A DNA stretch of 64,000 nucleotides, from the UHGV virus genome UHGV-0390448; one strand, 5' to 3'. Below are positions 25,028 to 49,457 of the stretch, piece after piece. The first letter of the stretch is position 1. Each line of letters starts with the position of its first letter. The position numbers and the translations under genes are program-made. Source of the stretch: a virus. The notes beneath the pieces are model-generated. The model searched no databases. It saw nothing but the letters and a program-made list of their open reading frames with translations, and was not told the origin of the DNA.

Positions 25028-25099
25028 GCTGCAAAGTGCTGGTGCTTTATGCCTGTGAAGTTTATAGTTGTGTACACATAACGAGTACACGAGGTGTTT

Positions 25100-25321
25100 A
25101 TGCAATCCATTAACTTCCGTACCGCGCGCGGCAACCTTTCTGAAGTGCTCAACAATGTTGAAGCCGGGGAAGAGGTTGAAATCACCCGCAGAGGCCGTGA
25201 GCCAGCAGTAATTGTCAACAAGGCTACTTTTGAAGCCTACAAAAAAGCGGCGCTGGATGCCGAATTTGCATCCCTGTTTGACACTCTGGACTCCACCAAC
25301 AAGGAACTGGTTAACCGATAA
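25100..25321 (+). CDS. phd: Phd antitoxin (prevent-host-death)
   Basis: [39 protein letters not shown] is essentially the P1 Phd sequence as I recall it. Confidence 0.85.
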
Positions 25322-25701
25322 TGAGGCATATATCACCGGAAGAACTTATTGCGCTTCATGATGCGAATATAAACCGCTACGGCGGCCTGCCGGGAATGTC
25401 AGATCCGGGTAGGGCAGAGGCCATTATCGGGAGAGTTCAGGCCAGAGTTGCCTACGAAGAGATCACCGACCTTTTCGAAGTCTCCGCCACCTACCTGGTG
25501 GCTACTGCGAGAGGGCATATATTCAATGATGCCAATAAGCGTACCGCGCTAAACAGTGCGCTGCTATTTCTACGCCGTAACGGTATACAGGTATATGATT
25601 CTCCCGTGCTGGTGGAACTTGCGGTTGGGGCTGCAACTGGTGAAATCCCCGTATCTTCAGTAGCGGAGAAACTACGTGAACTATATGGTTCCAATATTTG
25701 A
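25321..25701 (+). CDS. doc: Doc toxin (death-on-curing, Fic-fold kinase)
   Basis: [48 protein letters not shown] matches P1 Doc. Confidence 0.85.
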
Positions 25702-25734
25702 AAAGAAGCCCGCTCAACCAGGCGGGCTTCCTAC
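25701..25734. terminator. Hairpin between convergent doc and 25737-26843
   Basis: gaagcccgc-tcaaccag-gcgggcttc; T-run on the minus-strand side. Confidence 0.5.
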
Positions 25735-25736
25735 TA

Positions 25737-26843
25737 TCACTCAATGATTTTTTCTGCTGTCAGCCAGCTAATTTCTTGCCTGTCTTTCGGCGGTTTTAGC
25801 ATGTGGGCGTATTCAGCGACATTCTCCCACGGAATTGTTTTTGCCCACTCAACGATAGCATTGTGATCTGCAGTGAAGAGTGGAATGGTGTGCGATTTCA
25901 ACCACTCTAATGTTGTAACGCCATGTTTTTTTGCGTGGTGCTGTGCATGATGCCGGGCTATCACTTGTAATGGCATTGTCCATTCACTACCATCAGGCAT
26001 CGAAAAGCGCATTGTTTTCGGCATATCTGATTCAAGAACAGCCTCCCGAATACCCGGGAACTCACCAAGAACCATGCGACGGTAATCATCGCCGATTTTA
26101 CCACCATACATTTCTGCAATCCCATCAAGATAATCTTGAGTAAGCAGAGGTGATTCTTCTGCGTTCAGCTTGATGGCTGTATAAATACCACATGGATTTT
26201 CTTCAGTTTTTGCACGACCATGATGGGAATCGTAAAAGTGTCCATGTTCCTCCTCTGGAGGAGCGGACATTAAAAGTATACGTGAATCGTCACTCACTAA
26301 AGATGCTCTTAACATCCCGAATAGCCGATAGCTTACAAGAGCCGCGTCCATAACAATGATCAAAAGATGTTCAGCATAATATCCGGCTACATCTTCCTCA
26401 TAATTTAGGCGATATGGTTTAATTTCGCAGCCCCAAGATTTTTGGTAACGATGATTGAGGCCATTTTGGTCGATTTGAAAATACTCTCCCAGTAATGGCG
26501 CTTTTGTATTAGCTTTCTCCCAATACATATTCATGAGTGAGAGAGTTACCATTCCATTACGCTCAAAGTCTGGAGCGACCATGACCGTTTTAGACTCAGG
26601 CATCAGGATCGTATAAAGGATACAAATGATAGCCAGAGCAGACTTATGTCCTATCCCAGTCGGTGTGGTAACGCTGACTGCTGAACCTTTTTGTTGAATC
26701 GCTTCAACAATTAATTTTTGCTGGTGGGTTAACTTAACCCCCATCAACTCTTCTGCTGCTAATGCCCAGTCATGGCTATATTTGCTTACCAGCTCTCTCC
26801 ACTCTGGTAATTCGGTGATGTTTTTAGGCGTCAGCATCAGCAT
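25737..26843 (-). CDS. Terminase-large-subunit-like ATPase paralog with degenerate Walker motifs
   Basis: Aligns by eye to PacB-like 32192-33700: TGIGHKSALAI vs SGHGTGKSSLTA; HLLIIVMDAA vs HLLLILDEAS; HFYDSHHGRAKTEENP vs YFYESHHSRAKAEGNP. Only 368 aa. Confidence 0.6.
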   Translation of the reverse strand: MLMLTPKNITELPEWRELVSKYSHDWALAAEELMGVKLTHQQKLIVEAIQQKGSAVSVTTPTGIGHKSALAIICILYTILMPESKTVMVAPDFERNGMVTLSLMNMYWEKANTKAPLLGEYFQIDQNGLNHRYQKSWGCEIKPYRLNYEEDVAGYYAEHLLIIVMDAALVSYRLFGMLRASLVSDDSRILLMSAPPEEEHGHFYDSHHGRAKTEENPCGIYTAIKLNAEESPLLTQDYLDGIAEMYGGKIGDDYRRMVLGEFPGIREAVLESDMPKTMRFSMPDGSEWTMPLQVIARHHAQHHAKKHGVTTLEWLKSHTIPLFTADHNAIVEWAKTIPWENVAEYAHMLKPPKDRQEISWLTAEKIIE

Positions 26844-27630
26844 CCTCCGCTACCTCTGCCTCCACATCTGCCGCGACTTCATCGGACTGTTCTTCTTTGG
26901 CCTGTTCTGCAATCGCCGCACGGCATTTCGCCCTGGCTGTAGCGATAGCCTCAACTTTCACGTCATTAGGAATACTTGAGGTGACATACATATCCAGTTC
27001 TTCAGCACGGAATACTGTTTTGCCCAGGAATTCATCAAGCATCCAGGTTAAGGAAAAGTCGCAGGAAATCAGGTCTACTTCGCCTTCCGCGCCGTTTGGG
27101 AAATGGATAAATATCTGTTTGCCCAGGCCAAGCACGCGACAAGCAGCCATCATTACTGCAAGTTCCAGGTCTTTGTTTTCACCTGCTACTGGTTGATCCA
27201 CACCAGTAATAGTGCCGTTCAAATGGATATTATATGGCTGATATTTAGAGATACGTTCTACACGCCATGTGCCGGTTAAGGTTCCCTGGCGGAAGATTAT
27301 CGGCGTGACCGAAAGCGACAGCTCTCGAATGAGTTGTTGCGCTATGGCTGGGTCATACAGGGGATCTAACGCGATGCATCCATAAGACTGCGCCAGTTCA
27401 AACAATTCTTCCTGTGTGCACTGAATGCCTCTTGCCGTAATAAAACGTCTGACTCCCGTTTTTCCGTCACGCCAGATAGCAATGCCATTCTCACTATCTA
27501 ACTCTTCGTCTAAGCCCAGGTATGTAAGGATGGTTCGCTCAATGGTGGCAAAGGGCAGGGACATATCATCGTTTACATCCACCAGCAGGCCGTTACGCAG
27601 GCGATATTGAATGTTTTTGGTATTTTCCAC
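26824..27630 (-). CDS. Hypothetical protein with acidic C-terminal tail
   Basis: 268 aa; overlaps the downstream gene start. Confidence 0.5.
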   Translation of the reverse strand: MENTKNIQYRLRNGLLVDVNDDMSLPFATIERTILTYLGLDEELDSENGIAIWRDGKTGVRRFITARGIQCTQEELFELAQSYGCIALDPLYDPAIAQQLIRELSLSVTPIIFRQGTLTGTWRVERISKYQPYNIHLNGTITGVDQPVAGENKDLELAVMMAACRVLGLGKQIFIHFPNGAEGEVDLISCDFSLTWMLDEFLGKTVFRAEELDMYVTSSIPNDVKVEAIATARAKCRAAIAEQAKEEQSDEVAADVEAEVAEDADADA

Positions 27631-27636
27631 GTTAAA

Positions 27637-28299
27637 TCACTCCACAACAAACCAGTCACAGGCCAGCAGGTCGCCAACTGAAGGCACCCACGGAACAACT
27701 ACACCTTGTGCATTTTTTAAGGCGAAATAAGCACCATACGGAACGAGGTCGCCGGGGAAATATCCCTTAATGGCTTCCATTCGTGCCGGGTACTGTCCTT
27801 CAGGAACCAGCCAGCAGAATTGGTTTTCGCCGTTCCACCCGCGTCGAGCAACTTTCTTGCCATCCTTCAGCCACATCAGCGCGTCAGAAAAGTCGGCTGC
27901 TTCAAGGTCGATTTCTTCTTGTAGAGTAGCGATACCGCCAGCAGAAATAGTTACGTCCCTGGCTGTAATGAATGTCACCCCATTGTGACCTTCAATGCTG
28001 AGCAATGTCCCATTTTCGAAGGCGTCGTTAACCCGGCTATAGCATTTTTCAAATGCTTTCTCTGGCACATAGACCAGATAGCCATTTTCAGCAGTGACGA
28101 GATATCCTCCTATTTGCGGGCGGAATTTTTCCAAGAACACACCATCAACACGAAGCGTCATTCCTTTTGGCTCAACGACTTCGATACTGCCAAAAATGGG
28201 CGCATAATCTTCGCCGACAATAACAATATCTTTGATTTTCGATGCCCGAATGATGCTGTGGCATTTGTATTTGGGGAACACCTGAAAAGTGCTGACCAT
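27637..28299 (-). CDS. Phage protein with DUF2829-like C-terminal domain
   Basis: C-terminal MWLKDGKKVARRGW...DLLACDWFVVE pattern. Confidence 0.45.
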   Translation of the reverse strand: MVSTFQVFPKYKCHSIIRASKIKDIVIVGEDYAPIFGSIEVVEPKGMTLRVDGVFLEKFRPQIGGYLVTAENGYLVYVPEKAFEKCYSRVNDAFENGTLLSIEGHNGVTFITARDVTISAGGIATLQEEIDLEAADFSDALMWLKDGKKVARRGWNGENQFCWLVPEGQYPARMEAIKGYFPGDLVPYGAYFALKNAQGVVVPWVPSVGDLLACDWFVVE

Positions 28300-29293: not shown

Positions 29294-29634
29294 TTGCGCC
29301 CCCTTGCCGGATAGCGCCCGGCATTTGCATCAGGGGCAATGAAGCCGCTGGTGGGGCGAGTGAAAACATGGTTAATTTTCTCGGTCATAGCGCGATAATT
29401 TTCCTGATAGTGGGCCAGGAGTTTTTCAGCAGCAATGACGGTTACTTTCCGGACGTAGCGTTCAGCTTCCTCCAGATTTCGCCAGTTTTTTTCGAGGGTA
29501 AACACGGGAACGGCATCAAGTCCGGTCATAACACCGAACACCACGACCGCCTGGTCGCGCTTAACGCCCGCAGTGAAGGTTATGGTGTAACCGTCAACAG
29601 TGAAGCGTTTTGATTCCGTAATACGATTGTGCAA
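29290..29634 (-). CDS. Hypothetical protein, first gene downstream of cre
   Basis: 114 aa; occupies the position of P1 cra. Confidence 0.45.
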   Translation of the reverse strand: MHNRITESKRFTVDGYTITFTAGVKRDQAVVVFGVMTGLDAVPVFTLEKNWRNLEEAERYVRKVTVIAAEKLLAHYQENYRAMTEKINHVFTRPTSGFIAPDANAGRYPARGRK

Positions 29635-29692
29635 AGTACCCTCCGCAATAGGCGAGGGTACTTTACATTAAAATGCACTGTCTAAAAAGATT

Positions 29693-29699
29693 GTTAGAA
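29693..29699. promoter_or_regulatory. gttagaa half-site at the 3' end of cre
   Basis: ttgttagaaaattaattcagg. Confidence 0.3.
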
Positions 29700-29706
29700 A
29701 ATTAAT

Positions 29707-30735
29707 TCAGGAATCCATCAGGCGACTATTTGCACCAACGGATGCCCCGCTACGGCGCAAATATCGCATAAGTGTTTCGGGCTTTTTCCATGTGCCTTCC
29801 TGCATGATCTCGACCATTGACACCTGTTTCTCAGCCATATCAATTGCCGCACCAACACGCGCACTATGACCTGTCCACGTCCGGTATCTTCCTTTGTTCG
29901 GCGTGGCATCTCGCTTATTCAGCAATCCCCAGGCATCGCTGAATATTTTCTCCATCGCAGGAGCAGTAAGAGGCGTTGTCGTGATTCTGGCTTTATTACT
30001 GCGGTGTATTGGCGGGAATAGCACCGCGTCCGGATGTTCACGAAGTCCGGACACCTCCAGCCAGTCGTTTAGCACGGCGGTAGTGCAACGAGAAAGCACC
30101 TTATCAAGTCCGGCGGCGGTCGTGATGGTCTTCGTGTGTGAAATATGCAGCGTTACAGTGTCACCTGTTTGGTCCAGATCTCCGACACGGATGCGCGAGA
30201 TTTCTGACATACGCATCAGGGTATTGTATGCCACGAAGAGAAACGCCCGATTGCGCAGGTCCACCAGCCGCTCGGAACGGGACAGCAATACGTCGAGCAA
30301 TTTCAGATCATCCCACCGCAACGGTATAGCCTGGCCTGTACGCTCGCCTTTTTCCGTTGCCGCTTCGCGCCGGATGCGCCGCATGGCCAGAGATACACTT
30401 TTATCGTCTGACAGCGGCGGTAGGCCGCATTGCGAAAGCAGCATGTTAAGCATGGCATAGTGCTTATCAATGGTGGTCGAAGCCAGATCGGCTTCATGCA
30501 ACTGGAGAAGATACTCGCGGGCCATTTCCGGCGTAATCGGGAACCAGGGGCGCTGGCGCGAATTACACCACCGCGCCCAGGAATGAAAGACCAGACGGAG
30601 ATCACGAAGTGTATTTGGGGCATAAGCTCCCTGGTCGTTCATGAACTGCATAAAGTTTTTTGCAGCTTCCTGGTATTCGGTGCCAATATCGCGCAGAAAA
30701 CCGCCAGAACCGCCGGAGATAACTAGTTCACCCAT
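29707..30735 (-). CDS. cre: Cre-like tyrosine site-specific recombinase
   Basis: 342 aa; blocks WFPITPEMAREYLLQL, AYNTLMRMSEISRIRVGDL and WTGHSARVGAAIDMA align to P1 Cre (WFPAEPEDVRDYLLYL, AYNTLLRIAEIARIRVKDI, WSGHSARVGAARDMA). Confidence 0.85.
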   Translation of the reverse strand: MGELVISGGSGGFLRDIGTEYQEAAKNFMQFMNDQGAYAPNTLRDLRLVFHSWARWCNSRQRPWFPITPEMAREYLLQLHEADLASTTIDKHYAMLNMLLSQCGLPPLSDDKSVSLAMRRIRREAATEKGERTGQAIPLRWDDLKLLDVLLSRSERLVDLRNRAFLFVAYNTLMRMSEISRIRVGDLDQTGDTVTLHISHTKTITTAAGLDKVLSRCTTAVLNDWLEVSGLREHPDAVLFPPIHRSNKARITTTPLTAPAMEKIFSDAWGLLNKRDATPNKGRYRTWTGHSARVGAAIDMAEKQVSMVEIMQEGTWKKPETLMRYLRRSGASVGANSRLMDS

Positions 30736-32170: not shown

Positions 32171-32194
32171 AGCCCCGAATCGCCGGGGCTTTTA
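32171..32194 (+). terminator. Rho-independent terminator after the candidate repressor
   Basis: agccccg-aatcgc-cggggct followed by tttt. Confidence 0.55.
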
Positions 32195-33700
32195 AATGTC
32201 AATATCAGGAATATCCACTTCTGCCAACACCTGATCGCGGAATGTTGCTAGTTCTGCGCCAATGTCTTCATTAGCAGGCACGTAATCCACCAGCATAGTG
32301 AAGCAGTAGGTATCCCATCTGTCCGGCGACTTGATGTTTAACTTCTGCCGCATGTGCTCCTTGCGCATCATCGCCACCTTCCCTTCTTCGTTAAGCATAT
32401 ACGGGATTTTTGATGCCTGATCGGCAGTTTTGGGGTCACTATCGATACGCATACGCCCTGATTTAATGGCATCCCCTGCCATAATATTGGCGTAAGCACG
32501 CTGATTGACAAAGCGTTCTCTGTCTCTTAGCGCAAACATAGGTTTACCCCAACGGATGCGAACGGGATTAGCACCACGGCGGACAAGCTGCGCACACGTA
32601 TCTGAACCAAAGCCATCAGCATCCACAGCAATGGTGATGTTCGGGTATTTATCAGGAGTGCATTCGTTATAGATAAAGTCGGCAAAAGCCAACGGGTCCA
32701 TAGTGCCTGGCATCTCCAGTATCTTAAAGTTCACAACACGTCGTTTCTCACGATAACCGGATACTTTGCATATATTGAGCACCGATTTGTCGCGACCATT
32801 ACCGACGTCAGCGGTCGCTACCCAGCCCCAATCTTTCTCCAGCAACACTTTACGCCGTGCGGCGCGGTCGCACTCATCACGACCAAGCAAATACCCGTTA
32901 ATTGCACGCGGGAACTGGCCCAGCACCTTAACCATGTACTCCAGCGAATCCCTGCCGCCGTACTCCAGCAATTTCTCACGAATAAAGCTCGGTTCAACGA
33001 ATGGAGATTCTTCAGAGTTAAGGACTATTGCCGTCCAGACTCCTTCCGGATTGCCTTCTGCCTTTGCCCTTGAATGGTGGGATTCATAAAAGTAACCGCT
33101 TGGACGCGTAGGCTGGGAAAGCATGAGCATACGGTTATCTTTCTGCGTTAACGCCCCCGTCATGACGTTAATCGCCTTATCTGATATGCCCGATGCTTCA
33201 TCAAGGATTAGCAGTAAATGCTCCGCGTGCTCCCCCGCCAGTGCCTCTTCGTTACCGAGTCGATAACCTTTACAGAGCACTTCCCATATCCCTTTACGGG
33301 AACGCTCATAAAACATGGTGTCAGACAGGACAAAATAGGTCTGTAACCAGCCGTGGCGCTTAACAGCATTCGCCCAAAACTGTTTCACGTATTTGAATAC
33401 GCCTGTTTTTACCTGGCCTATTTTGTTCGCAACAATAATGACGCGGGCGTCGGGGAACAGGATCATAAAAATTAGTAGCAACATCGCGGTAAGGGACGAC
33501 TTACCCGTTCCGTGTCCGGACGTAACGGTCGTCCTGCTCCCCGTCTCCTGCACTGACTGAATGATCTGCTGCTGCTGGTGGGAGGGGAACATCCCAAAAA
33601 TATCGACAACCGCCTGGGTAAAGTTGTATCGATACCTGATAACCATATCGCGCCAACGTGGATCACTGGTGACGCACTTAATCTTACGACCACCAGCCAT
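32192..33700 (-). CDS. pacB: Terminase large subunit (PacB-like)
   Basis: Walker A-like TSGHGTGKSS, Walker B LLLILDEASGI; 502 aa; follows pacA. Confidence 0.8.
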   Translation of the reverse strand: MAGGRKIKCVTSDPRWRDMVIRYRYNFTQAVVDIFGMFPSHQQQQIIQSVQETGSRTTVTSGHGTGKSSLTAMLLLIFMILFPDARVIIVANKIGQVKTGVFKYVKQFWANAVKRHGWLQTYFVLSDTMFYERSRKGIWEVLCKGYRLGNEEALAGEHAEHLLLILDEASGISDKAINVMTGALTQKDNRMLMLSQPTRPSGYFYESHHSRAKAEGNPEGVWTAIVLNSEESPFVEPSFIREKLLEYGGRDSLEYMVKVLGQFPRAINGYLLGRDECDRAARRKVLLEKDWGWVATADVGNGRDKSVLNICKVSGYREKRRVVNFKILEMPGTMDPLAFADFIYNECTPDKYPNITIAVDADGFGSDTCAQLVRRGANPVRIRWGKPMFALRDRERFVNQRAYANIMAGDAIKSGRMRIDSDPKTADQASKIPYMLNEEGKVAMMRKEHMRQKLNIKSPDRWDTYCFTMLVDYVPANEDIGAELATFRDQVLAEVDIPDIDI

Positions 33701-35064
33701 TAGTCATCCTCCGGCTGGTCTATCGCAATCTCGTCATCTACAGCATCAAAACCGGTATCCCCCGCGTCATAATCACCGTAGATATCAGCCGTGGCGGAAG
33801 GGTCTATATTCAGGTCTTCATCATTGGCCTCAAATTCACCGGCTTTACGTTCTCCGTTCCGGTCGTAATCCCCCATCCCAAGCCTATCAACGATTTTCGC
33901 TACTTCAGCCCGGCGTTGTGCAAGCCATTGTGGGAGTCCAGCTTGTTGCTCGGCAAACTGCTTCGCCTCTTTATCCAGTTGCTCATCATCAACATCGTTA
34001 ACGTCAGAAACCGGAGGCTCCAGAAGTGAGATCGCTTTTGCCGCTCGTGCCGCCAGGATAGCCGGGACACTGACGCCCTGCCGCTCGATATATTCAGCAA
34101 CGCCTATATCGTCCAGCTCCTCGCGCTCACGCATACGTATAGCGGCGGCGATAACTCTGGCGGCGCGTGCGTCAGCGCCAATGCGATACTCAATCTCTTT
34201 GCCACGCTGCTCGGCTTGCAGGCGAGTAATCGCCAGTTTTTCTCTGGCCTCAGCCTCTCTGAATGCCTGCTGGCGCGCGCCCTGCGCAAGTTTTTCATCC
34301 CCCTGGCGTAGCTTCTGCTCGGTCTGGTAGATGGCAGCCAACCTACTGATAAAGTCATTCATGTAGTAGGCCGCATCGCTTATTAGGCCGAGAAGACGCT
34401 GCCCTGGGTGCATTCCCTCTGGCTGTGTATCGCCGAGGGCGTCAATCTCTTCCTGTAGTCGTTCCGCTTCCTGGTCAACGATGGCCTGATACTGAATTGC
34501 TCGTTCCTGCGCCATCTGTATCGCAAGTCGTAAATGTTCAGTCGCGCCGTTCTTCATCATCTCACGGGCGACGTTGGTGGCAGGCAAAGTGGCGCTTTGA
34601 GCTGATGAGTCAGGGATCATTTGCAATGATCCCTTGTTTCGTTGGGCTTTTTCGCTGCTTTTAGGGATCATTTCCCCCATTTCATCACAAAATGATCCCC
34701 TTACATCCTTGTGTATCTTATTGTTATTACTTGGCTTTTCTTTGTGATCCGCATTTTGTTTTTGCGGCATGGCGCGGAATCGTCCACCAGCTAACGATTT
34801 GTCAGTTTTTGTAAATTCTGTGCTTTTATCAGCCTTTTTTTGCTCTTTTTTTGGGCTTGTGGCGCTACTTTTTGCGCGCTGTTTTGTACTTTTCCCGGCA
34901 GCCTTAGCTTTCGCTTTAACCTCGTTTTTTTTCATATTGAGATGCTTTCTGGCGGTGTTAAAGCTGAGGTCATGCTGCTCGCAATATTCTTTTATGGTGA
35001 TCCCGGTTTCTTCTCTTAACTCCAGGAACTTAGCTCGATGCGCTTCCCAGTTAATTAACGTCAT
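33700..35064 (-). CDS. pacA: Terminase small subunit (PacA-like); contains pac-like repeats
   Basis: Position upstream of pacB with start-stop overlap; N-terminal HTH-like region; internal GATC repeat cluster. Confidence 0.6.
   Translation of the reverse strand: MTLINWEAHRAKFLELREETGITIKEYCEQHDLSFNTARKHLNMKKNEVKAKAKAAGKSTKQRAKSSATSPKKEQKKADKSTEFTKTDKSLAGGRFRAMPQKQNADHKEKPSNNNKIHKDVRGSFCDEMGEMIPKSSEKAQRNKGSLQMIPDSSAQSATLPATNVAREMMKNGATEHLRLAIQMAQERAIQYQAIVDQEAERLQEEIDALGDTQPEGMHPGQRLLGLISDAAYYMNDFISRLAAIYQTEQKLRQGDEKLAQGARQQAFREAEAREKLAITRLQAEQRGKEIEYRIGADARAARVIAAAIRMREREELDDIGVAEYIERQGVSVPAILAARAAKAISLLEPPVSDVNDVDDEQLDKEAKQFAEQQAGLPQWLAQRRAEVAKIVDRLGMGDYDRNGERKAGEFEANDEDLNIDPSATADIYGDYDAGDTGFDAVDDEIAIDQPEDD
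34612..34700. other. Candidate pac site: four GATC-centred heptamers as two inverted pairs
   Basis: agggatcatt/aatgatccc at about 34612-34633 and again at about 34664-34699, inside pacA; P1 pac is built from Dam-site hexamer repeats within pacA. Confidence 0.45.
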
Positions 35065-35560: not shown

Positions 35561-35944
35561 CTACCAGCGGGATAAACGAACAACATGCTTAACTTTTGCC
35601 TCCCACTTCCCTTTATGTTTGTTGATCACCGCCTGCGCCATCTTCAGACTGGCTTCAAAATCGGCTTTTCGACCACTATTGCCCACCAGCAACGCTCCGT
35701 CTATTTCGGGTAAGCATAAGTAATCCTGCTCGACGGTAAGCGGCATTGATGATGTAACCTGGCAGGCTTTCCATCTGAAGCGTATGCGCACACTCCTGAC
35801 TGACATCACGACATAACCTGATATTGTGCTCTTGTGTCCGGCGTCTGTGCGTGTAGCCTTGCATGATGTTATCTTGCAGGTGATGATGTCCCAACCAATG
35901 TGCATCGCATCCTCAATGCGTAATTTAGTAGCCTCGTACATCAA
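35561..35944 (-). CDS. Hypothetical protein
   Basis: ORF only. Confidence 0.45.
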   Translation of the reverse strand: MMYEATKLRIEDAMHIGWDIITCKITSCKATRTDAGHKSTISGYVVMSVRSVRIRFRWKACQVTSSMPLTVEQDYLCLPEIDGALLVGNSGRKADFEASLKMAQAVINKHKGKWEAKVKHVVRLSRW

Positions 35945-36516
35945 AAAACCTCCCAGTCAGTAGCGATAATATCGACACCAGTTGCAAACCAGTCTGTCTG
36001 CGCCTGTAAATCCCCATTCATCATTACCAGGCGAGGCATAACCATCACATCACAACCTTCAACAATATCGAATGCCTCTTCCGGCAGGAATTCGACGAGC
36101 TTTTCTTTGCTGCCAACACTGCCACGGAGCATCGATATATAGCTCCCTTTAGGCCATGATGTTCGCCGGGCATCAAGCCCCTTCATCATCCAGTAAAAGG
36201 CCGATGAGAACGGGATGTTCTTTTTGGCGATGAGCACGTTATTCGCTTCTGTGTACTTCAGGAACTTAACTAACCTTACCATCGACTCGGATAACGCAAT
36301 GTACGGCTCATGATTGATTGCTGACACGCTTACGCCGTGCAGTCCAACACTTACCACTGTCATATCACCGTTCTGTGCGGTTTCGATGTTGACGCCTTTA
36401 CGAACTAACGCTGCATAAAGCTCCTCGCGCTTTTGCGTCCAGCATTCTCGTCGCCCTATAAAGTCACTCAAAACGAGATCATCTTCTGAATACGCGTTAT
36501 CGTTCGCCGTTAACAT
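35941..36516 (-). CDS. Hypothetical protein, possible DUF2829-like C-terminus
   Basis: C-terminal DWFATGVDIIATDWEVF. Confidence 0.45.
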   Translation of the reverse strand: MLTANDNAYSEDDLVLSDFIGRRECWTQKREELYAALVRKGVNIETAQNGDMTVVSVGLHGVSVSAINHEPYIALSESMVRLVKFLKYTEANNVLIAKKNIPFSSAFYWMMKGLDARRTSWPKGSYISMLRGSVGSKEKLVEFLPEEAFDIVEGCDVMVMPRLVMMNGDLQAQTDWFATGVDIIATDWEVF

Positions 36517-42605: not shown

Positions 42606-45600
42606 TTAAGCCGCATCGGCGATTATTTTACGCAATTCATCTACCGAGTAACGCGTAGATACCATCCACGCCGGACGGTCAAAGTCCACATCCGCGACCG
42701 GATTCACTTCAAAATTCCAGAAACGCCCGCCAATCTTCTTAATCGCGTCTTTGGCGTTCCGTATTGTCGAGGAACCTGGTTGGTCGGCAATGAGATAAAC
42801 CGCGCCAACGTCCTCGCTGACGCTCCACCAGCGCCCGCGAACACGCGCCTTAGCGCGAATAGGCTTATCATTAACCACAATGATATAGTCATCATTCGCC
42901 GCTTCATCAGCTCTGGCTTCAGCCTCTGCCGCCTGCTCTTCTCTTTTGCTTTCAGCCTGTTCAAGCCTTTCCGCGATCTCTGATTCGGTGGCCCCGCCGT
43001 TTTTCAGCGATACAAAGTCTTGCCACGTTGCTGATTTGAGCGCATCCGGCAACTCATTCACATAGTCACCGTCTTTCAACTCACGGGCGCGGCGGGTAGC
43101 CATTTCTACCAGGCGATTAACAGAAACAGCATCAGCAAAATCGTCCTTACTAATGTGTTTTTCATCAAATGCATTGATGACAGCCCCCACCTTAATCCAC
43201 TGTGCTGCCGGTGATTCCAGGGGGTTATCAGCCTGGACAATGGCGAGTTTCGCTCCATCTACCCCATTATTCGCCAACTGTTCCAGTGCCGCCCATCCAT
43301 CTGCATCACTGAGTGATTTATATTGCTCAAACAATGCATCGCGCCAGGCCACCAGCGCAGAACGTGTTTTTTCGATCTTCGTCTTAATTTTCGCGATCTT
43401 GACCTGATTAAACATCCGTTCAATATCATCGATATTGCTAAAGGCTTTCATCCTGCCCTTGAATAAACGGTATGCCAGCACGGTCCTCCAGAATGATTCC
43501 AGACCTTCTCCGGACGGTTTGCGGAACAAGCTAAGAATATCTTCAGAAGTGACTTTATTAAGCGAACGACCTGACAGACCACGCCCAGCCATCCAGTTTT
43601 CGAACTCCTGGGCAACATCATCCATCGTTGCCTGTGCGCCCCATGCCTGCATTCCCTGGATGTAATCATACCCATACAATGCCTGGAGGAATCCCTCACC
43701 GTCCACGATATTCAGCGGGTTATCACTGGCTTGTATTTTTGCCACTTCACGCTTCAGCGCCTCATCGTTGCCATCTGGATATATCCATCGTTCAGGTGCT
43801 ATATCCGATGCTCGCCCGATTTTTTGGCCTATCACGCCATCATAGGCCGATGACAGCGCGATCTGACCATCATCTGTGCGATATGCCCAGTATTTAATAG
43901 CTGACCCACCGCCCCATGCATTACCAGGTTTACCAGCAATAACATTCATTACCCCATTGCGAATAGCATCATAGAACTGATCGCGAGTAAGTATTGTTGA
44001 TAGCTGGTGGCACTGAACACCACGCGCAGCCGTTGCGCGCGATTCAGCTACCCCCTCTTCAAAAGTTACCGCTTCAATCACAGAGTCAAACGGCAATGTA
44101 ACGATTGACCCTGGTGATCGAGCGTAACGACTTGCTCTATCCAGCCAGGCGATACGGCAGATGTACTGTGCTTTTTCACCGTCAATTTTTTCCACCCGGA
44201 CAATCGCTGTTGTTTCGCGATCATCAATGACTGCACGGTAATAACTACCTTTATGCAACAGGATATTCTTGTCAGTGCGCATATATTCCTGTGGGTTCTG
44301 AATAACATCGATACTGATATCCAGCACACCAGACTTAATAGCGCGCTCCACATCACCACGAGAGCGTTTCATTATGGTATCCGCGTCTTTTGCCCTGGTG
44401 ATCGCAAACCGCAGCACCCGCGCACGTTTTCTGTAGCTACTCAACTGCTCAAGCGCGTATTTTTGCCCATTCCTGTTCGTGCCCGCTTTTATCAGGTCGT
44501 CAAGATTGCGCTGGTAATACTCTATCTGTTCCATCGCGCTTTTCAGTTCTGTCTCCATCATGCCGATATCTTTTCCAGCGGCGTTTGCCGCTTTCAGGTA
44601 GATATCGAGAGCATTGTTGGCCTCGCGCTGTGCTTTCAGTTTCAGACGTTCTTCACGCTCTTGCGCCTGGCGAGCCATGATTGCGCGGCGTTCTTCCGGG
44701 TTTGCCGCCAGCATAATGGCGCGTTCATCAGCATCATCCGCATCACCATTGGCGATCTCTGACATGTCGGAGGTCATCACCATCTTGATCCAGTCTTTCT
44801 TACGTTTCAGCGTATCCAGACGGAAGTCGTCGAATGTGCCTTTGCCACAATAGTAGTGAACATTGACCTTCTCTTGCGGTGAACCTACGCGCGCACCGCG
44901 CCCATTTCGTTGGTCGATACTGGCTGGTGTCCAGGGTAGTGTCAGGTGGTGGATATCGGTTGTCCCGATATGCAGGTTAATACCTACTTCAGCCTTCTTG
45001 TTACAGATAATGATGCGCGTGCGCCCTTCGTTATAGTCGGCGGCAATGCCTTCCATACCCTCAAGGCCAGCATCATTTTTAGCTGAGAGATAATCCTCAT
45101 ATTGGGCAAGTTTGCTGTAGTAGGTTTCCCATGCCCCTTCTTTGTATTCACCGTTTTTATTCGGAGTAGGTTCAGTCGGCTTATTCACCTTCTTCAGCTT
45201 GATGCCGCCAGCCTGGCTAACGGTCGTCGCATTGATAATGCCTATCTCCTGCTCCGGCATTTGCAGTGCACTGGCGATAATACGGCGCAGCTTCTGGTGC
45301 TGGGCTTTTTCATCAATGAAGACAATTTGTTTACCGTTCTTCAGACCTTCACGAAGGTTTTCGATCAGCGCGGCATACTTCGGCGGGATGGGGTGTGATA
45401 CCTGCTGCAGATCAATCCCGGCGGCAGCAATGGCCTTCAGTATTTCAGCTTCCAGTTCAATGCTGGCACGTATTTCAACATGCGCCGGATGTTCACTAAA
45501 GGTGGTCTTCACTACCTTACTGGTGCGCGTACTAACCAGCCCACCAGCGCCGTCTTCTTCGGCCTCGTCTGCATCATCTGCCACTTTACCGCCAGCTACT

Positions 45601-48600
45601 TTTGGCAGGGCATCAGCAATAGCTTTTACCTTGTCTGCAAGCTCAACGGGGAACTGGAATGTAATCGCACTGGCATACAGATCCGGATCTATAGCAACCT
45701 TATCCATGTCGCGGATGATGGAGAAGATGAAATCATCCGGTTTTTCGTTTGTGATATGCCCGTTTTCATCAACCGTCAGCGCATCTTTACTACTTAACTC
45801 CTGTGCACGCTTACGAAGCTCTTCATAAGCAGCCTCCTGCTCCCCTGTCATCGGGATCTGCAAGGTATTCTCGACAATATCAGGGATTTTAACCGTCGCC
45901 CCGACGTCCGCAGCAGTCTTCAGAGTAGTCCAGCGATGGAAAATACCACGCAGGCCATCAAGGTTCTGGAAGCCAACCAGCCCCTGCTTCTCTTCCACTT
46001 CCCCGGAAATTTTCTGGACCTGAACTGTGGCTGTTTTGCCAAACACACGAACGAAATCATCAGGCGTAATGATGCCCATGCGCATCCACTCTTCCTGCGG
46101 AATGACAGTAGACAGCATGTTGAAGGCATCAATCGGACTGTTCACCAGCGGAGTTGCCGTCAGCATGACTACACCACGCCCGTTGTTGCGTTTCATCATG
46201 TACGCAGCTTTTACAGCCATGTCGCGGGCCATCTTGGATACTGCCGGGTTAGGCAAATATGCCAGTTGTCCCGCTTCACGCCCGGCATTAAAGGAGTTGC
46301 GGTAGTTATGCCCCTCGTCGGCAATCACGCTATCGAAGTTCATATCCTCAAAGTACGGGATATTCTGCTTCTTCGTTGTACCGGTATTCGCGGCCTGATC
46401 CTTAATCTTGTTCTTCTTCTGCGCATCACGGTGTTTACCAGACGCCAGGTCAAGACGCCCCATTTCCACAGCATTAAAGACAGCTTGCTGTGAGTTCTCC
46501 TCGATGGTTTTTTCTCGTAGCGGGATAGACGCGAATTGTTCTTTTGTCATGATGACCGTTCGCCAATTTGACGACGGGATCATGTTCATGCGCTGAACGA
46601 TAACGGCGCTGGCGGACTCTTTCACAACATTTCTGGTAAGAGGCTGCCCGTTACTGTCGAGGCGGGGTTCGCCATTTTCATCAAGCACCGGCGCGGTCAG
46701 AATATTGCCGTCTTCATCACGAACTTCATCCAGACCGATAAACATCATATTGGCGAAGGCATCAGCACTGTAGAAGCTCTGTGCCTCGTGATACCAGTTC
46801 TGATAAACCGCCTTCGGAACAACAATACACGTGCGTTTAGTGCGGCCTGTTTCGAAGTTATACGCCTCAAGCGCAAGCGCGGTCGTGGTTTTACCCAGCC
46901 CGGTACCAAATCCCATGATGCCGCGCCCATCTTCTGACAAGCGCCGAACTTCTTCATTCTGATAAGTCAGAGGAATGCGCTTTCCACTAATCCCTTCCAG
47001 GCCAAGCGGTGCGTTAGAGTGCGTGAACGGAATGAAGCCATTGAATGCGTCGTTATACTCGCGGGCTATCTGATCCGCCTGCGGGTGGGTGCGTAACCAG
47101 TCGTTAAAACTAACTTCCAGTTGAGCAATTTTATCCAGGTACTCGTTAGCGTTCTGCCCACGCGGTTTAACACCGTTCAGGTAGTTTTCTAACTGGTTCA
47201 GGAAGCCGTCTTTATTGTTGGCCTTCTTGAACTCATTCCCGTTTTTGCCGTTTACGGTTCGTAGCTGATAGCCGGTAAATACCCCGTCCTTACCTTCGTA
47301 ATCGTCCGGAGATACCAGAATGCCATCGACGACCTTCAGATCAGGTTCAGTGTACTTAAACTCGTCATAGCCCTGCTCTGCCAGGAACTCTTTTATCAAG
47401 CGGCGATCCAGCCAGCGGGCGTTCAGATTAACGGTGACTTTATTTAGTGGCGTGAAAATGCGTTTCTCTTCGATTTTCGCCAACTGACGCTCAAAGTTCG
47501 ATTTCTGCTCACCTGTTGACGCATCACGCCAGCCCATCAGCAATGCTGTTTTGGTTGCAATATCGCCGCTGGTGGCGCGGTCCATCGGCAGCAGGCAGCC
47601 ATACCCATCAATAGCGATATCATCAAATTTCGCCAGGTATTCAAGGGCCGCGTCGTCGTCCTCTGGCAGTTCACCAGCAAACGCCTCACGAAAGTCGCCC
47701 AGCGTTATAGGATTAAGGGCTACATCACTGAAAAGATGTGCTATCACTTGTTCCGGACGTGTAAAGTCAATACCGGCAGCACCATCCGTTACATCAAGTC
47801 GCCCTGCCAGAAGGTCAGAAGTGGAACCATCCTGTTTCACGTTGCCAGTGAACGTCATCCAGTTTTTAGCTCCAGCTTCTGCAAGCCCATTCAGCTTAAT
47901 CGCGTGCGGTGGTCCATACTTCGCAACTTCTGCTGCCGCCAGGCGGGATGCATCTGCCAGTTTGTCATCAACGTTCACCCCCAGGTTACGCAAATCAAGT
48001 GCCTTGTTGATCAACTGCCCTATCAACGCACCGCGCATAACGCGCTCCCTATCTTTTTCTCGCTGTTTGCCAGCAAAGCGAATCATTGCTGCCACTTCAT
48101 CACTGACAACCGATGGATAGTCGGACGCGATCGCCGATATCTGGTCCCATGACAAAGCCAGAATCCCGTTTGTTGACTGGAACGCGATCTGCAGATCGCC
48201 AAACGTCGAAACACCATATCGACTTACATCAAGCGCGGAGGATTTGGTTGTCGTGTCCTTAACCCATTTCAGGCCATCAAACTCATGCCAGATACCGCCT
48301 ACAAGGCGCTTATCCCCTACTTTTGCGCCCTGCCATGCCTGGGTAGTTACTCCGAGCAAATCCCAATTAATACGGCTTTCAAAGCGGCGTGATAGAGCGG
48401 TTTTCATCGACTCATTGGATACACGGCCATCCTTTTTCACCACCAGGGTATTGCGGAAGCTGGTGCGTTCCATGTCGCCATAAACAAATCGCTTCCCTTC
48501 GGTTGTAAACCATTTCCCTTTGAGGAAGGAATCCCAAAGGACGTTTGCCGATTTGAGCGTTGCATCATCCGTGTCGGGGATCATCTCCAGGAAGGTTTCC

Positions 48601-49457
48601 GGGTGTTTACGCAATACCCATACGTCCACCACGGTATCTGTACCGGATTCGCTGAACGTACCAGAAGGCATACGATGCGCGCCCAAAAATTCCGCCTTAC
48701 GGCTGACTTTATCGCGCAATTTTTTGTATTTCGTACCATCGGTCATGCCATTCGGCACCACCAATACAATTAGTCCACCAGGCTTAACCTTGTCGATCGT
48801 GCGCAGCACAAAGTAATTGCCAACGTTCTTCTCGTTTGCATATGCCGGATCAAGCCCGGCGACACCGGAACGCCCTTCACCAAACGGTACGTTACCAACA
48901 GCGTGATCATACATTGCGTCTTTCGCCGCCAGCGCCTCAAACGCCCCGATATTCACATCGTCTTCCGGGTGCAAAAGCTGGTTTATTCGACCGGAAATCG
49001 GAGACAGTTCGGCGCTGGTCATTATCATGCCCTGCCGTTTTGTCTCCTGGAAAATACCTGTGCCTGCTGACGGTTCCAGTACGTGACCGCTATCAATACC
49101 GTAGTCGCCGAAGAGATCCCATATACCTTCTGCCATAAACTGTGGCGTATAGTATTCGTATTGGCTGCCCTCACCATCTGTCAGGCCGCCTTCACCGGTA
49201 TACCCGGCAAGAATCTGGCGCTGTTCGTCAGTTAATTTCGCCCCATCGAAGCCGGGCGGAAGGGAATTAAGAAGATCTACTGCGGCGTTGTTTGCTGCCC
49301 GGCGTGTTTTCTGAATACTGACGCCATCGACTTTCTTAACGCCAAAGGTCACTACAGCTCGCGGTTTATGCAACCGACTAACAATTTCAATCAGCGCCCC
49401 AATGCTGGTGGCCTGGCTAATTGAATCAATTATTTTGTCCAAAGGAAGCCCCCTCAA
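42606..49457 (-). CDS. darB: DarB-like giant virion antirestriction protein (N6-adenine methyltransferase plus SF2 helicase)
   Basis: 2283 aa; MTase motifs VLEPSAGTGIF and GNVPFG; helicase motifs GFGTGLGKTTTA, ADEGHNYRNS, MLTATPLVNS; size and domain order match P1 DarB (about 2255 aa). Confidence 0.75.
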   Translation of the reverse strand: MRGLPLDKIIDSISQATSIGALIEIVSRLHKPRAVVTFGVKKVDGVSIQKTRRAANNAAVDLLNSLPPGFDGAKLTDEQRQILAGYTGEGGLTDGEGSQYEYYTPQFMAEGIWDLFGDYGIDSGHVLEPSAGTGIFQETKRQGMIMTSAELSPISGRINQLLHPEDDVNIGAFEALAAKDAMYDHAVGNVPFGEGRSGVAGLDPAYANEKNVGNYFVLRTIDKVKPGGLIVLVVPNGMTDGTKYKKLRDKVSRKAEFLGAHRMPSGTFSESGTDTVVDVWVLRKHPETFLEMIPDTDDATLKSANVLWDSFLKGKWFTTEGKRFVYGDMERTSFRNTLVVKKDGRVSNESMKTALSRRFESRINWDLLGVTTQAWQGAKVGDKRLVGGIWHEFDGLKWVKDTTTKSSALDVSRYGVSTFGDLQIAFQSTNGILALSWDQISAIASDYPSVVSDEVAAMIRFAGKQREKDRERVMRGALIGQLINKALDLRNLGVNVDDKLADASRLAAAEVAKYGPPHAIKLNGLAEAGAKNWMTFTGNVKQDGSTSDLLAGRLDVTDGAAGIDFTRPEQVIAHLFSDVALNPITLGDFREAFAGELPEDDDAALEYLAKFDDIAIDGYGCLLPMDRATSGDIATKTALLMGWRDASTGEQKSNFERQLAKIEEKRIFTPLNKVTVNLNARWLDRRLIKEFLAEQGYDEFKYTEPDLKVVDGILVSPDDYEGKDGVFTGYQLRTVNGKNGNEFKKANNKDGFLNQLENYLNGVKPRGQNANEYLDKIAQLEVSFNDWLRTHPQADQIAREYNDAFNGFIPFTHSNAPLGLEGISGKRIPLTYQNEEVRRLSEDGRGIMGFGTGLGKTTTALALEAYNFETGRTKRTCIVVPKAVYQNWYHEAQSFYSADAFANMMFIGLDEVRDEDGNILTAPVLDENGEPRLDSNGQPLTRNVVKESASAVIVQRMNMIPSSNWRTVIMTKEQFASIPLREKTIEENSQQAVFNAVEMGRLDLASGKHRDAQKKNKIKDQAANTGTTKKQNIPYFEDMNFDSVIADEGHNYRNSFNAGREAGQLAYLPNPAVSKMARDMAVKAAYMMKRNNGRGVVMLTATPLVNSPIDAFNMLSTVIPQEEWMRMGIITPDDFVRVFGKTATVQVQKISGEVEEKQGLVGFQNLDGLRGIFHRWTTLKTAADVGATVKIPDIVENTLQIPMTGEQEAAYEELRKRAQELSSKDALTVDENGHITNEKPDDFIFSIIRDMDKVAIDPDLYASAITFQFPVELADKVKAIADALPKVAGGKVADDADEAEEDGAGGLVSTRTSKVVKTTFSEHPAHVEIRASIELEAEILKAIAAAGIDLQQVSHPIPPKYAALIENLREGLKNGKQIVFIDEKAQHQKLRRIIASALQMPEQEIGIINATTVSQAGGIKLKKVNKPTEPTPNKNGEYKEGAWETYYSKLAQYEDYLSAKNDAGLEGMEGIAADYNEGRTRIIICNKKAEVGINLHIGTTDIHHLTLPWTPASIDQRNGRGARVGSPQEKVNVHYYCGKGTFDDFRLDTLKRKKDWIKMVMTSDMSEIANGDADDADERAIMLAANPEERRAIMARQAQEREERLKLKAQREANNALDIYLKAANAAGKDIGMMETELKSAMEQIEYYQRNLDDLIKAGTNRNGQKYALEQLSSYRKRARVLRFAITRAKDADTIMKRSRGDVERAIKSGVLDISIDVIQNPQEYMRTDKNILLHKGSYYRAVIDDRETTAIVRVEKIDGEKAQYICRIAWLDRASRYARSPGSIVTLPFDSVIEAVTFEEGVAESRATAARGVQCHQLSTILTRDQFYDAIRNGVMNVIAGKPGNAWGGGSAIKYWAYRTDDGQIALSSAYDGVIGQKIGRASDIAPERWIYPDGNDEALKREVAKIQASDNPLNIVDGEGFLQALYGYDYIQGMQAWGAQATMDDVAQEFENWMAGRGLSGRSLNKVTSEDILSLFRKPSGEGLESFWRTVLAYRLFKGRMKAFSNIDDIERMFNQVKIAKIKTKIEKTRSALVAWRDALFEQYKSLSDADGWAALEQLANNGVDGAKLAIVQADNPLESPAAQWIKVGAVINAFDEKHISKDDFADAVSVNRLVEMATRRARELKDGDYVNELPDALKSATWQDFVSLKNGGATESEIAERLEQAESKREEQAAEAEARADEAANDDYIIVVNDKPIRAKARVRGRWWSVSEDVGAVYLIADQPGSSTIRNAKDAIKKIGGRFWNFEVNPVADVDFDRPAWMVSTRYSVDELRKIIADAA

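Follow-up and report, generated by a model that had tools for sequence, protein, structure and literature searches.

Why would a phage-plasmid that encodes a complete packaging terminase also keep a second, terminase-like gene that seems unable to perform catalysis? The question is raised by UHGV virus genome UHGV-0390448, analysed here as a stretch of 64,000 nucleotides (nt) that we call the window, and by a gene on its minus strand at 25737..26843 that we name pseudo-PacB. Among the hallmark enzymes of tailed phages, large terminases are regarded as invariant, essential, and present in a single copy, and they are also the main proteins detected by bacterial pattern-recognition immunity (Avs1-3). 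The window is part of a P1/D6-like Escherichia coli phage-plasmid of about 90 kb. Its resident PacB (32192..33700, minus strand; 502 amino acids, aa), which combines the canonical motifs GHGTGKS and LDEAS with a nuclease half, appears to be a functional large terminase and serves as the reference for comparison. Judged from sequence and a structural model, pseudo-PacB seems to be a non-catalytic ATPase fold of the large-terminase (TerL) type, fused to a conserved domain of about 105 aa and carried in an optional, mobile and recombining cassette from which the resident pacB gene is absent. A previous sequence-only reading had described the gene as a truncated, catalytically compromised terminase paralog, kept as a separate gene, that might regulate packaging, serve as a decoy or interfere with other phages.

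The relationship to terminases is evident in the N-terminal domain (residues 1-262; 26058..26843, minus strand), which has the large-terminase ATPase fold without its catalytic residues. BLASTP aligns residues 7-263 with the resident PacB at 34% identity (E 6e-49), requiring two one-residue gaps that both lie away from the Walker motifs, and tblastn aligns residues 4-270 with PacB of P1 at 36.6% identity; the PacBs of P1, P7, and RCS47 all fall within 36.6-36.9% in tblastn. Over these approximately 262 residues the homology to the PacBs of P1 and of the window amounts to 34-37% identity with E values from 1e-43 to 6e-49, and includes the ASCE fold and the Q-motif helices. The blocks common to both proteins are the N-terminal helices and residues 188-263, the latter with the motifs S.P, G.FY.SHH, and GG..Y..G.FP. 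An AlphaFold2 model reaches block means of 84-98 in the predicted local distance difference test (pLDDT) across residues 11-260, and a Foldseek search of the PDB ranks the ATPase domains of the P74-26, T4 gp17, and Sf6 terminases first (E 5e-9 to 1e-7), the top matches also including that of D6E TerL and all having a probability of 1.00. Model and matches together assign the domain to the ASCE P-loop ATPase fold of the TerL type. The block-by-block alignment with the PacB ATPase domain proposed before therefore holds, at the level of sequence as well as of fold, and the possibility that the protein is unrelated to terminases is not borne out. One property differs clearly, since the isoelectric point (pI) of the N-terminal domain is 5.3 versus 9.1 for the PacB ATPase domain. 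This acidity would fit a loss of DNA handling, as a partial trend only, for the charge shift is not uniform among relatives and two stand-alone pseudo-PacBs are basic.

Both catalytic motifs of this fold are degenerate in pseudo-PacB, as is seen in the translation and in the alignments. Where PacB has SGHGTGKSS, the Walker A motif or P-loop of pseudo-PacB reads TPTGIGHKS (26640..26666, minus strand); BLAST and MAFFT align the two P-loops without a gap and place a His in the column of the PacB Lys. The segment sits in a strand-loop-helix arrangement in the AlphaFold2 model, as expected of a P-loop. The altered motif noticed earlier (GIGHKS) is thus present, but the clean insertion invoked to explain it is not, as the gapless alignment corresponds to a substitution or a shift. 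Walker B reads HLLIIVMDAA (26340..26369, minus strand) versus HLLLILDEAS in PacB. Gapless alignment turns the Asp of the dyad into Met and the Glu into Asp, and the pairing of MDAA with LDEA suggested originally, which is shifted by one residue, leads to the same conclusion, namely that the catalytic Asp-Glu dyad is missing.

These changes extend to the relatives of the protein. The PacB relatives that were retrieved, from Escherichia to Photobacterium and including more distant contigs, have GHGTGK[ST] and hhhhDE without exception (27/27), whereas the Walker motifs are lost in all alleles of the paralog. Their P-loops read GIGHKS, GIGQKT, GIGRPQ, GIGRAP, and GIGETS, with His, Gln, Arg, or Glu at the position of the Lys and Cys or Thr there in more distant relatives. 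The Walker B dyad appears as MD, TE, AE, VD, VN, or IN, and as PN in a stand-alone relative from Citrobacter, so that the Asp position is occupied by Met, Thr, Ala, Val, Ile, or Pro and the Glu position by Asp, Glu, or Asn. The catalytic Lys and the Walker B Asp are conserved in none of the paralogs examined. Because no catalytic residue is kept across the paralogs, loss of the ATPase seems to be a property of the family and no accident of a single sequence. ATP hydrolysis, DNA translocation, and pac cleavage are all predicted to be lost in pseudo-PacB, which differs from PacB in lacking the Walker A Lys, the Walker B Asp-Glu, and the RNase H-like nuclease, and in having a foreign C-terminal domain instead.

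This C-terminal domain (residues 263-368; 25740..26057, minus strand) occupies the place of the nuclease domain. It is characterised by the motif MPDGSxWxVP...IA..RA..YA...DT.PLF...EI.DWA.NNM.W.DV, and we refer to it as the MPDGS-W domain. The nuclease domain is indeed missing, the protein stopping at residue 368; however, to call the protein truncated is misleading, as a distinct domain under strong purifying selection stands in its stead. The domain has no entry in Pfam or NCBIfam and no match in the PDB, does not match any nuclease fold, and is unrelated to the RNase H-like nuclease half of PacB; its predicted fold recurs in uncharacterised phage proteins modelled in BFVD. A phmmer search of 1.84 billion representative proteins yields 207 relatives at E<=1e-3. 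Most of them are stand-alone proteins of about 100 aa that share MPDGSxWxVP, IAxxRA, PLF, and DWA..M.W.DV, and the family is acidic, with a median pI of 4.7. Xanthomonas phage CP2 ORF36 and Cronobacter phage JK004 gp35 belong to it. Wherever the genomic context was examined, the relatives are genes of phages or phage-plasmids located in early replication or recombination regions. Proteins of about 500 aa in phrog_17928 end in the same domain (E 1.2e-14), and further fusions join it to Zn-ribbon, Lar-like, and DUF1351-like coiled-coil parts. In contrast to these single-domain proteins and other fusions, which make up most of the family, only P1-like elements join it to a terminase-derived domain. 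The window holds a single copy, detected at E 5e-32 in a profile search.

A fusion in the reverse order also exists. The protein P0076 (L005, 6001..6741, in GCA_024867085.4) begins with the MPDGS-W domain, which is followed by a PacB-like domain with the P-loop GSGTGTTT. Its gene is truncated by a gene for a Tn3-family transposase, and genes for AbiH and for a RecA-dependent nuclease lie in the vicinity.

Selection acts very unevenly along pseudo-PacB. Pairwise ratios of nonsynonymous to synonymous substitution rates (dN/dS), obtained by the Nei-Gojobori method, are about 0.05-0.08 for the C-terminal domain, 0.10-0.17 for the adjacent IsaA homolog described below, and 0.14-0.35 for residues 181-262 of pseudo-PacB. 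Residues 60-180 (26304..26666, minus strand), which begin at the P-loop and end shortly after Walker B, form a hypervariable core, for which dN/dS is 0.6-0.8 in pairs with the window allele and 0.3 in other pairs. A comparison of the window with plasmid pEC361_3 illustrates this. Residues 60-120 are only 52% and residues 121-180 only 70% identical (dN/dS about 0.6), whereas residues 1-59 are 100%, the C-terminal domain 98%, IsaA 99%, and PacB 100% identical. Similarly, the N-terminal domains of pseudo-PacB in the window and in pS143-4 are 51% identical, versus 92% for the PacBs. Alleles of pseudo-PacB, of IsaA, and of the Tad2-like protein encoded upstream occur in shuffled combinations on backbones, most of which are 90-100% identical, and this free reassortment leads us to reject the idea that IsaA co-varies with the pseudo-PacB alleles. 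In a neighbor-joining tree, with the caveat of long branches, the paralogs, or VTTPxGIG proteins, all form a single clade that branches outside the P1-type PacBs of enterobacteria and Vibrio; on this placement an origin as a recent duplicate of the resident pacB is rejected. The Citrobacter stand-alone relative was not part of the tree and shares the TTPxGIG motif and the degenerate sites with the clade. As far as alleles and phylogeny can tell, pseudo-PacB appears to be an old, functional, and mosaic gene that is independent of the resident pacase.

The gene itself is an intact open reading frame (ORF), separate from pacB as had been stated, which encodes 368 aa when read from the first ATG at 26843 to the stop codon at 25737..25739. 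The true start is probably the ATG at 26837, giving a product of 366 aa, since a GGAGG ribosome-binding site precedes this third codon by 6 nt and RefSeq homologs from related plasmids are annotated at the same length. Every ORF examined is intact, and the corresponding clusters comprise 100, 122, and 392 member sequences. Full-length intact ORFs, with deeply diverged alleles among them, are carried by 163 plasmids and by 17 IMG/VR contigs; shorter forms (P0006 and P0007) and one with a frameshifted C-terminus (L004) are also found. The profile match is to phrog_5902 (E 4e-127), a family that pools pseudo-PacB with genuine PacB, and the resident PacB matches phrog_5902 as well as phrog_2 (terminase large subunit). 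Sequence searches of Pfam, NCBIfam, PADLOC, and the PDB retrieve no match for pseudo-PacB or for the IsaA homolog, and PADLOC-DB v2 at E<=0.1 has none for pseudo-PacB, the IsaA-like protein, the Tad2-like protein, or two neighbouring ORFs. Elsewhere the protein is labelled 'hypothetical protein', and the phage records MH422554.1 (16006..17100) and MH445380.1 wrongly label it 'terminase large subunit', despite the missing catalytic motifs and nuclease domain.

Pseudo-PacB is the last gene of a three-gene cassette. Directly upstream lies the gene for the IsaA homolog (26824..27630, minus strand), a protein of 268 aa with an acidic C-terminal tail and a pI of 4.4, which is 47% identical to P1 IsaA over 262 aa (E 4e-86) and matches phrog_2326 (E 2e-124). 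Its stop overlaps the start of pseudo-PacB by 14-20 nt, an overlap conserved among related loci. The name IsaA stems only from the adjoining IS1 element in P1. The cassette opens with a gene for a Tad2-like (DUF2829) protein of 220 aa (27637..28299, minus strand; PF11195, E 1.6e-22). Tad2 (Thoeris anti-defence 2) proteins act as sponges, and the Tad2-like protein is distinct from pseudo-PacB; it differs from Tad2 by an extra N-terminal domain, of about 135 aa, and its anti-Thoeris activity is putative. Over its last 110 aa it does not differ from its counterpart in an IncY P1-type plasmid (100% identity), whereas identity between the neighbouring genes is no more than 42-59%. A second Tad2-like protein is encoded in the window at 35941..36516 (minus strand), and its RefSeq homolog is named 'MW1434 family type I TA system toxin'.

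The order of the cassette is well conserved. Among the 17 related IMG/VR loci, 16 include upstream sequence, and all 16, together with five plasmid or phage loci, have an IsaA homolog immediately upstream of pseudo-PacB; a Tad2-like gene precedes IsaA in 15 of these 16 and in the IncY P1-type context. Two sites are occupied. In the window the cassette adjoins cre and dut, and in Punavirus-type elements it occupies the very slot between ssb and hxr that holds isaA-IS1-isaB in P1, adjoining the dar antirestriction operon. In the latter slot pseudo-PacB takes exactly the place of IS1 between isaA and hxr. P1 differs in possessing isaA without pseudo-PacB, and its IsaB is unrelated; for want of similarity we reject IsaB as a pseudo-PacB remnant cut by IS1, and likewise IsaA as a paralog of PacA. 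P1 isaA is non-essential in a screen of P1 by CRISPR interference (CRISPRi; PMC10695390). A third site is seen in the Citrobacter freundii plasmid NZ_CP114569 (L014, 4474..5265), where a stand-alone pseudo-PacB of 263 aa directly follows ref; it has GIGCKH and a Walker B of ICPNAN, is 39% identical to PacB, and lacks both the C-terminal domain and an IsaA neighbour.

Pseudo-PacB is also optional. A full-length copy is present in 163 of the 789 PLSDB plasmids that match the query, most of which match through PacB, and P1, P7, and D6 have none. IsaA homologs are encoded by 481 PLSDB plasmids, far more than carry pseudo-PacB. The gene is not adjacent to pacA or pacB, its IsaA-like upstream neighbour being without similarity to PacA, and it evolves much faster than the essential PacB. 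It is an accessory gene and optional cargo.

As to the element around it, plasmid pEC361_3 is 95% identical to the 7 kb surrounding pseudo-PacB, and the same 7 kb match 1,489 plasmids from Escherichia and Salmonella, mostly non-mobilizable. The phage collection contains no near-identical DNA; relatives come to light only in protein comparisons or in collections of plasmids. Besides the cassette, the window encodes a Cre-like recombinase, phd-doc, a humD-like gene, a homolog of the theta subunit of DNA polymerase III (Pol III), a giant DarB-like ORF, and the PacA/PacB pair, whose PacA-like gene (33700..35064, minus strand) lies upstream of that for the resident PacB. The DarB-like ORF (42606..49457, minus strand; 2283 aa) has segments resembling an N6-adenine methylase and a SNF2/ResIII helicase and resembles the P1 antirestriction protein DarB. 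Between cre and six tightly packed downstream genes lies a gap of 72 nt (29634..29707, minus strand) with the hairpin GTACCCTC...GAGGGTAC and the hexamer TACCCT, which equals the -10 element of P1 LPpac, without the -22 box of P1. On the other side of pseudo-PacB, the gene converges on phd-doc (25094..25701, plus strand), as had been described, with the doc stop at 25701; this arrangement is not conserved, however, as phd-doc appears to be a variable insert and the humD-like gene directly follows pseudo-PacB, without doc, in 7/17 IMG/VR loci (L022-L024, L027, L029, L030, and L008). The 35-nt gap between doc and pseudo-PacB contains the hairpin GCCCGC...GCGGGC (25708..25723), found by a terminator scan and in the sequence, which is likely to be a bidirectional terminator.

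What might such a protein do? It seems very probable that pseudo-PacB acts as a non-catalytic binder, and we lean, by a little, towards a role in conflict between phage and host or between phages. The full proposal, in which a mimic of the terminase ATPase binds a factor of the host or of a rival in such a conflict, is put forward tentatively. Pseudo-PacB would neither power packaging nor cut pac; it would act stoichiometrically, imitate the structure of the large-terminase ATPase domain, and occupy a partner that normally engages this domain, and the conserved C-terminal domain would supply a second contact or an effector. A factor of the host or of a rival element would be a more likely partner than the pacase of the element itself, because the gene can be dispensed with, its allelic variation does not follow that of PacA/PacB, its neighbours include counter-defence genes, and a C1-repressed ssb promoter lies upstream in the P1-type slot. 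As candidate partners we consider a terminase-sensing immune receptor or, in a competing P1-like phage, its PacA, PacB, or portal. The Punavirus-type cassette follows ssb, whose promoter has a C1 operator, which suggests early, repressor-controlled expression of the cassette in this slot, in contrast to the late promoter used by pacA/pacB. With a Tad2-like gene as neighbour, a dar operon close by, and this likely early expression, counter-defence or competition is favoured. A more specific version is possible but rather doubtful as it stands: the terminase-fold mimic would be a weapon or a shield, either as an early decoy or blocker of Avs1-3 or as a dominant-negative subunit poisoning a rival pacase, with the C-terminal domain as effector or blocker of oligomerisation and the core around the former active site as the interface of an arms race. 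The decoy or interference role suggested in the sequence-only reading remains compatible with the data.

A precedent for the kind of mechanism proposed is Gpi of the Vibrio cholerae satellite PLE, a small inhibitor that binds the large terminase of ICP1 (Boyd & Seed 2024, PMC11417361). Like pseudo-PacB in our proposal, Gpi is a non-enzymatic protein of a mobile element that acts on a packaging motor by binding. The two proteins are not related in sequence or fold, Gpi does not derive from a terminase, and its target and phenotype are demonstrated, whereas those of pseudo-PacB are inferred. The literature searched mentions no second or inactive PacB, no terminase-like anti-defence protein, and no description of pseudo-PacB.

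Several observations weigh against a conflict-related mimic. The adenine-binding Gln (Q42) and two P-loop glycines are invariant among the paralogs, so nucleotide binding may remain. The hypervariable core could reflect simple relaxation after the loss of catalysis, with no arms race involved. Within the window the consensus of the P1 C1 operator is absent, a late-promoter motif built from LPpac and LPlyz of P1 has no match, and a scan for sigma-70 promoters gives only a consensus promoter upstream of cre. Pfam, NCBIfam, and PADLOC tie pseudo-PacB to no defence or anti-defence family. Finally, a role in DNA metabolism would also fit, given that ssb, ref, ban, and Erf/RecE are found close to the module or to relatives of the C-terminal domain.

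Such a role is the main alternative, though in itself an unlikely one. Pseudo-PacB would then be an accessory factor in phage DNA replication, recombination, or end-protection, with the C-terminal domain as the functional part and the terminase-like domain as a scaffold for DNA or protein. The module, stand-alone pseudo-PacBs, or copies of the C-terminal domain adjoin ssb, ref, a ban/DnaB-like helicase gene, and genes for Erf plus a RecE-like exonuclease, and in the window the neighbours include dut, the Pol III theta homolog, and the humD-like gene. Since the early regions of phages mix genes of DNA metabolism with anti-defence genes, the neighbourhood alone does not discriminate between the two roles. 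The proteins themselves argue against a role in DNA metabolism, as the N-terminal domain, the C-terminal family, and IsaA are all acidic (pI 5.3, median 4.7, and 4.4), unlike DNA-binding proteins, and no similarity to known recombination or replication folds is detected.

The decoy idea can also be taken by itself and in its narrowest form, namely that an inert look-alike of TerL, made early, loads the Avs1-3 sensors or blocks their oligomerisation before PacB appears late in infection. Avs1-3 bind the large terminase directly and recognise its fold (PMC13581612), and it is this TerL fold that pseudo-PacB retains. Such sensing and the TerL inhibition by Gpi lend precedent to the two specific versions, decoy and rival-directed. 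Moreover, the gene is located after a Tad2-like gene of the anti-Thoeris type, its Punavirus slot is downstream of the early promoter of ssb whereas pacA/pacB are late, and the surroundings of the former active site are hypervariable among its alleles. The known anti-Avs proteins are unrelated to terminases, and the decoy mechanism would thus be new. However, recognition of the terminase by Avs3 reportedly involves residues of the ATPase active site, bound ATP, and the nuclease domain. Pseudo-PacB is without all three of these features, whose loss may serve to avoid detection, and we regard a decoy aimed at Avs sensors as improbable in this strict form.

Somewhat less probable again is a regulator of the element's own packaging, which would join or cap PacA/PacB and thereby time pac cleavage or headful packaging. 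It is true that pseudo-PacB has conserved blocks in common with PacB and that PacB is its closest homolog. Yet P1, P7, D6, and the majority of P1-like plasmids do without the gene, identity among its alleles is 49-51% in elements whose PacBs are 92-100% identical, which indicates no co-evolution, and it is found away from pacA/pacB, in an early and not a late operon in the P1-type slot. Being optional and not co-evolving with PacB, the gene is a disfavoured candidate for a regulator of the own pacase.

An active NTPase with an unusual P-loop, in which the Lys one position downstream (GIGHKS) takes over in the window allele, is very improbable. K67-S68 do follow right after the displaced position, D166 is beside the Walker B strand, and the invariance of the adenine-binding Gln and the glycines would agree with it; but the GIGRPQ, GIGRAP, and GIGETS alleles have no Lys at either position and VN, IN, or PN dyads occur, yet these proteins are intact and conserved elsewhere, and dN/dS of the region reaches 0.6-0.8 in pairs with the window allele. 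Hardly credible, lastly, is the idea that a terminase gene was duplicated or captured and is now a functionless relic in decay, which could account for the lost catalytic motifs, the relaxed core, and the shorter forms P0006, P0007, and L004, but which the dN/dS results largely refute through the strong purifying selection on the C-terminal domain and residues 181-262, and which is at odds with the intact, deeply diverged ORFs in plasmids and IMG/VR contigs, the conserved overlap with isaA, and the independent fusion in reverse order.

The interest of pseudo-PacB lies in the existence of a conserved, catalytically dead derivative of a terminase as optional cargo, fused in both orders to an uncharacterised domain. 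Its setting is beside a Tad2-like gene, at a recombination hot spot of phage-plasmids that are clinically widespread in E. coli and Salmonella. For practical purposes, the 'terminase large subunit' labels attached to pseudo-PacB can lead phage typing and searches for packaging modules astray. If pseudo-PacB is indeed a mimic of the terminase ATPase domain, it would be the first terminase-derived pseudoenzyme in conflicts between phage and host or between phages, and it would provide a handle on the roles of IsaA and of the MPDGS-W domain family.

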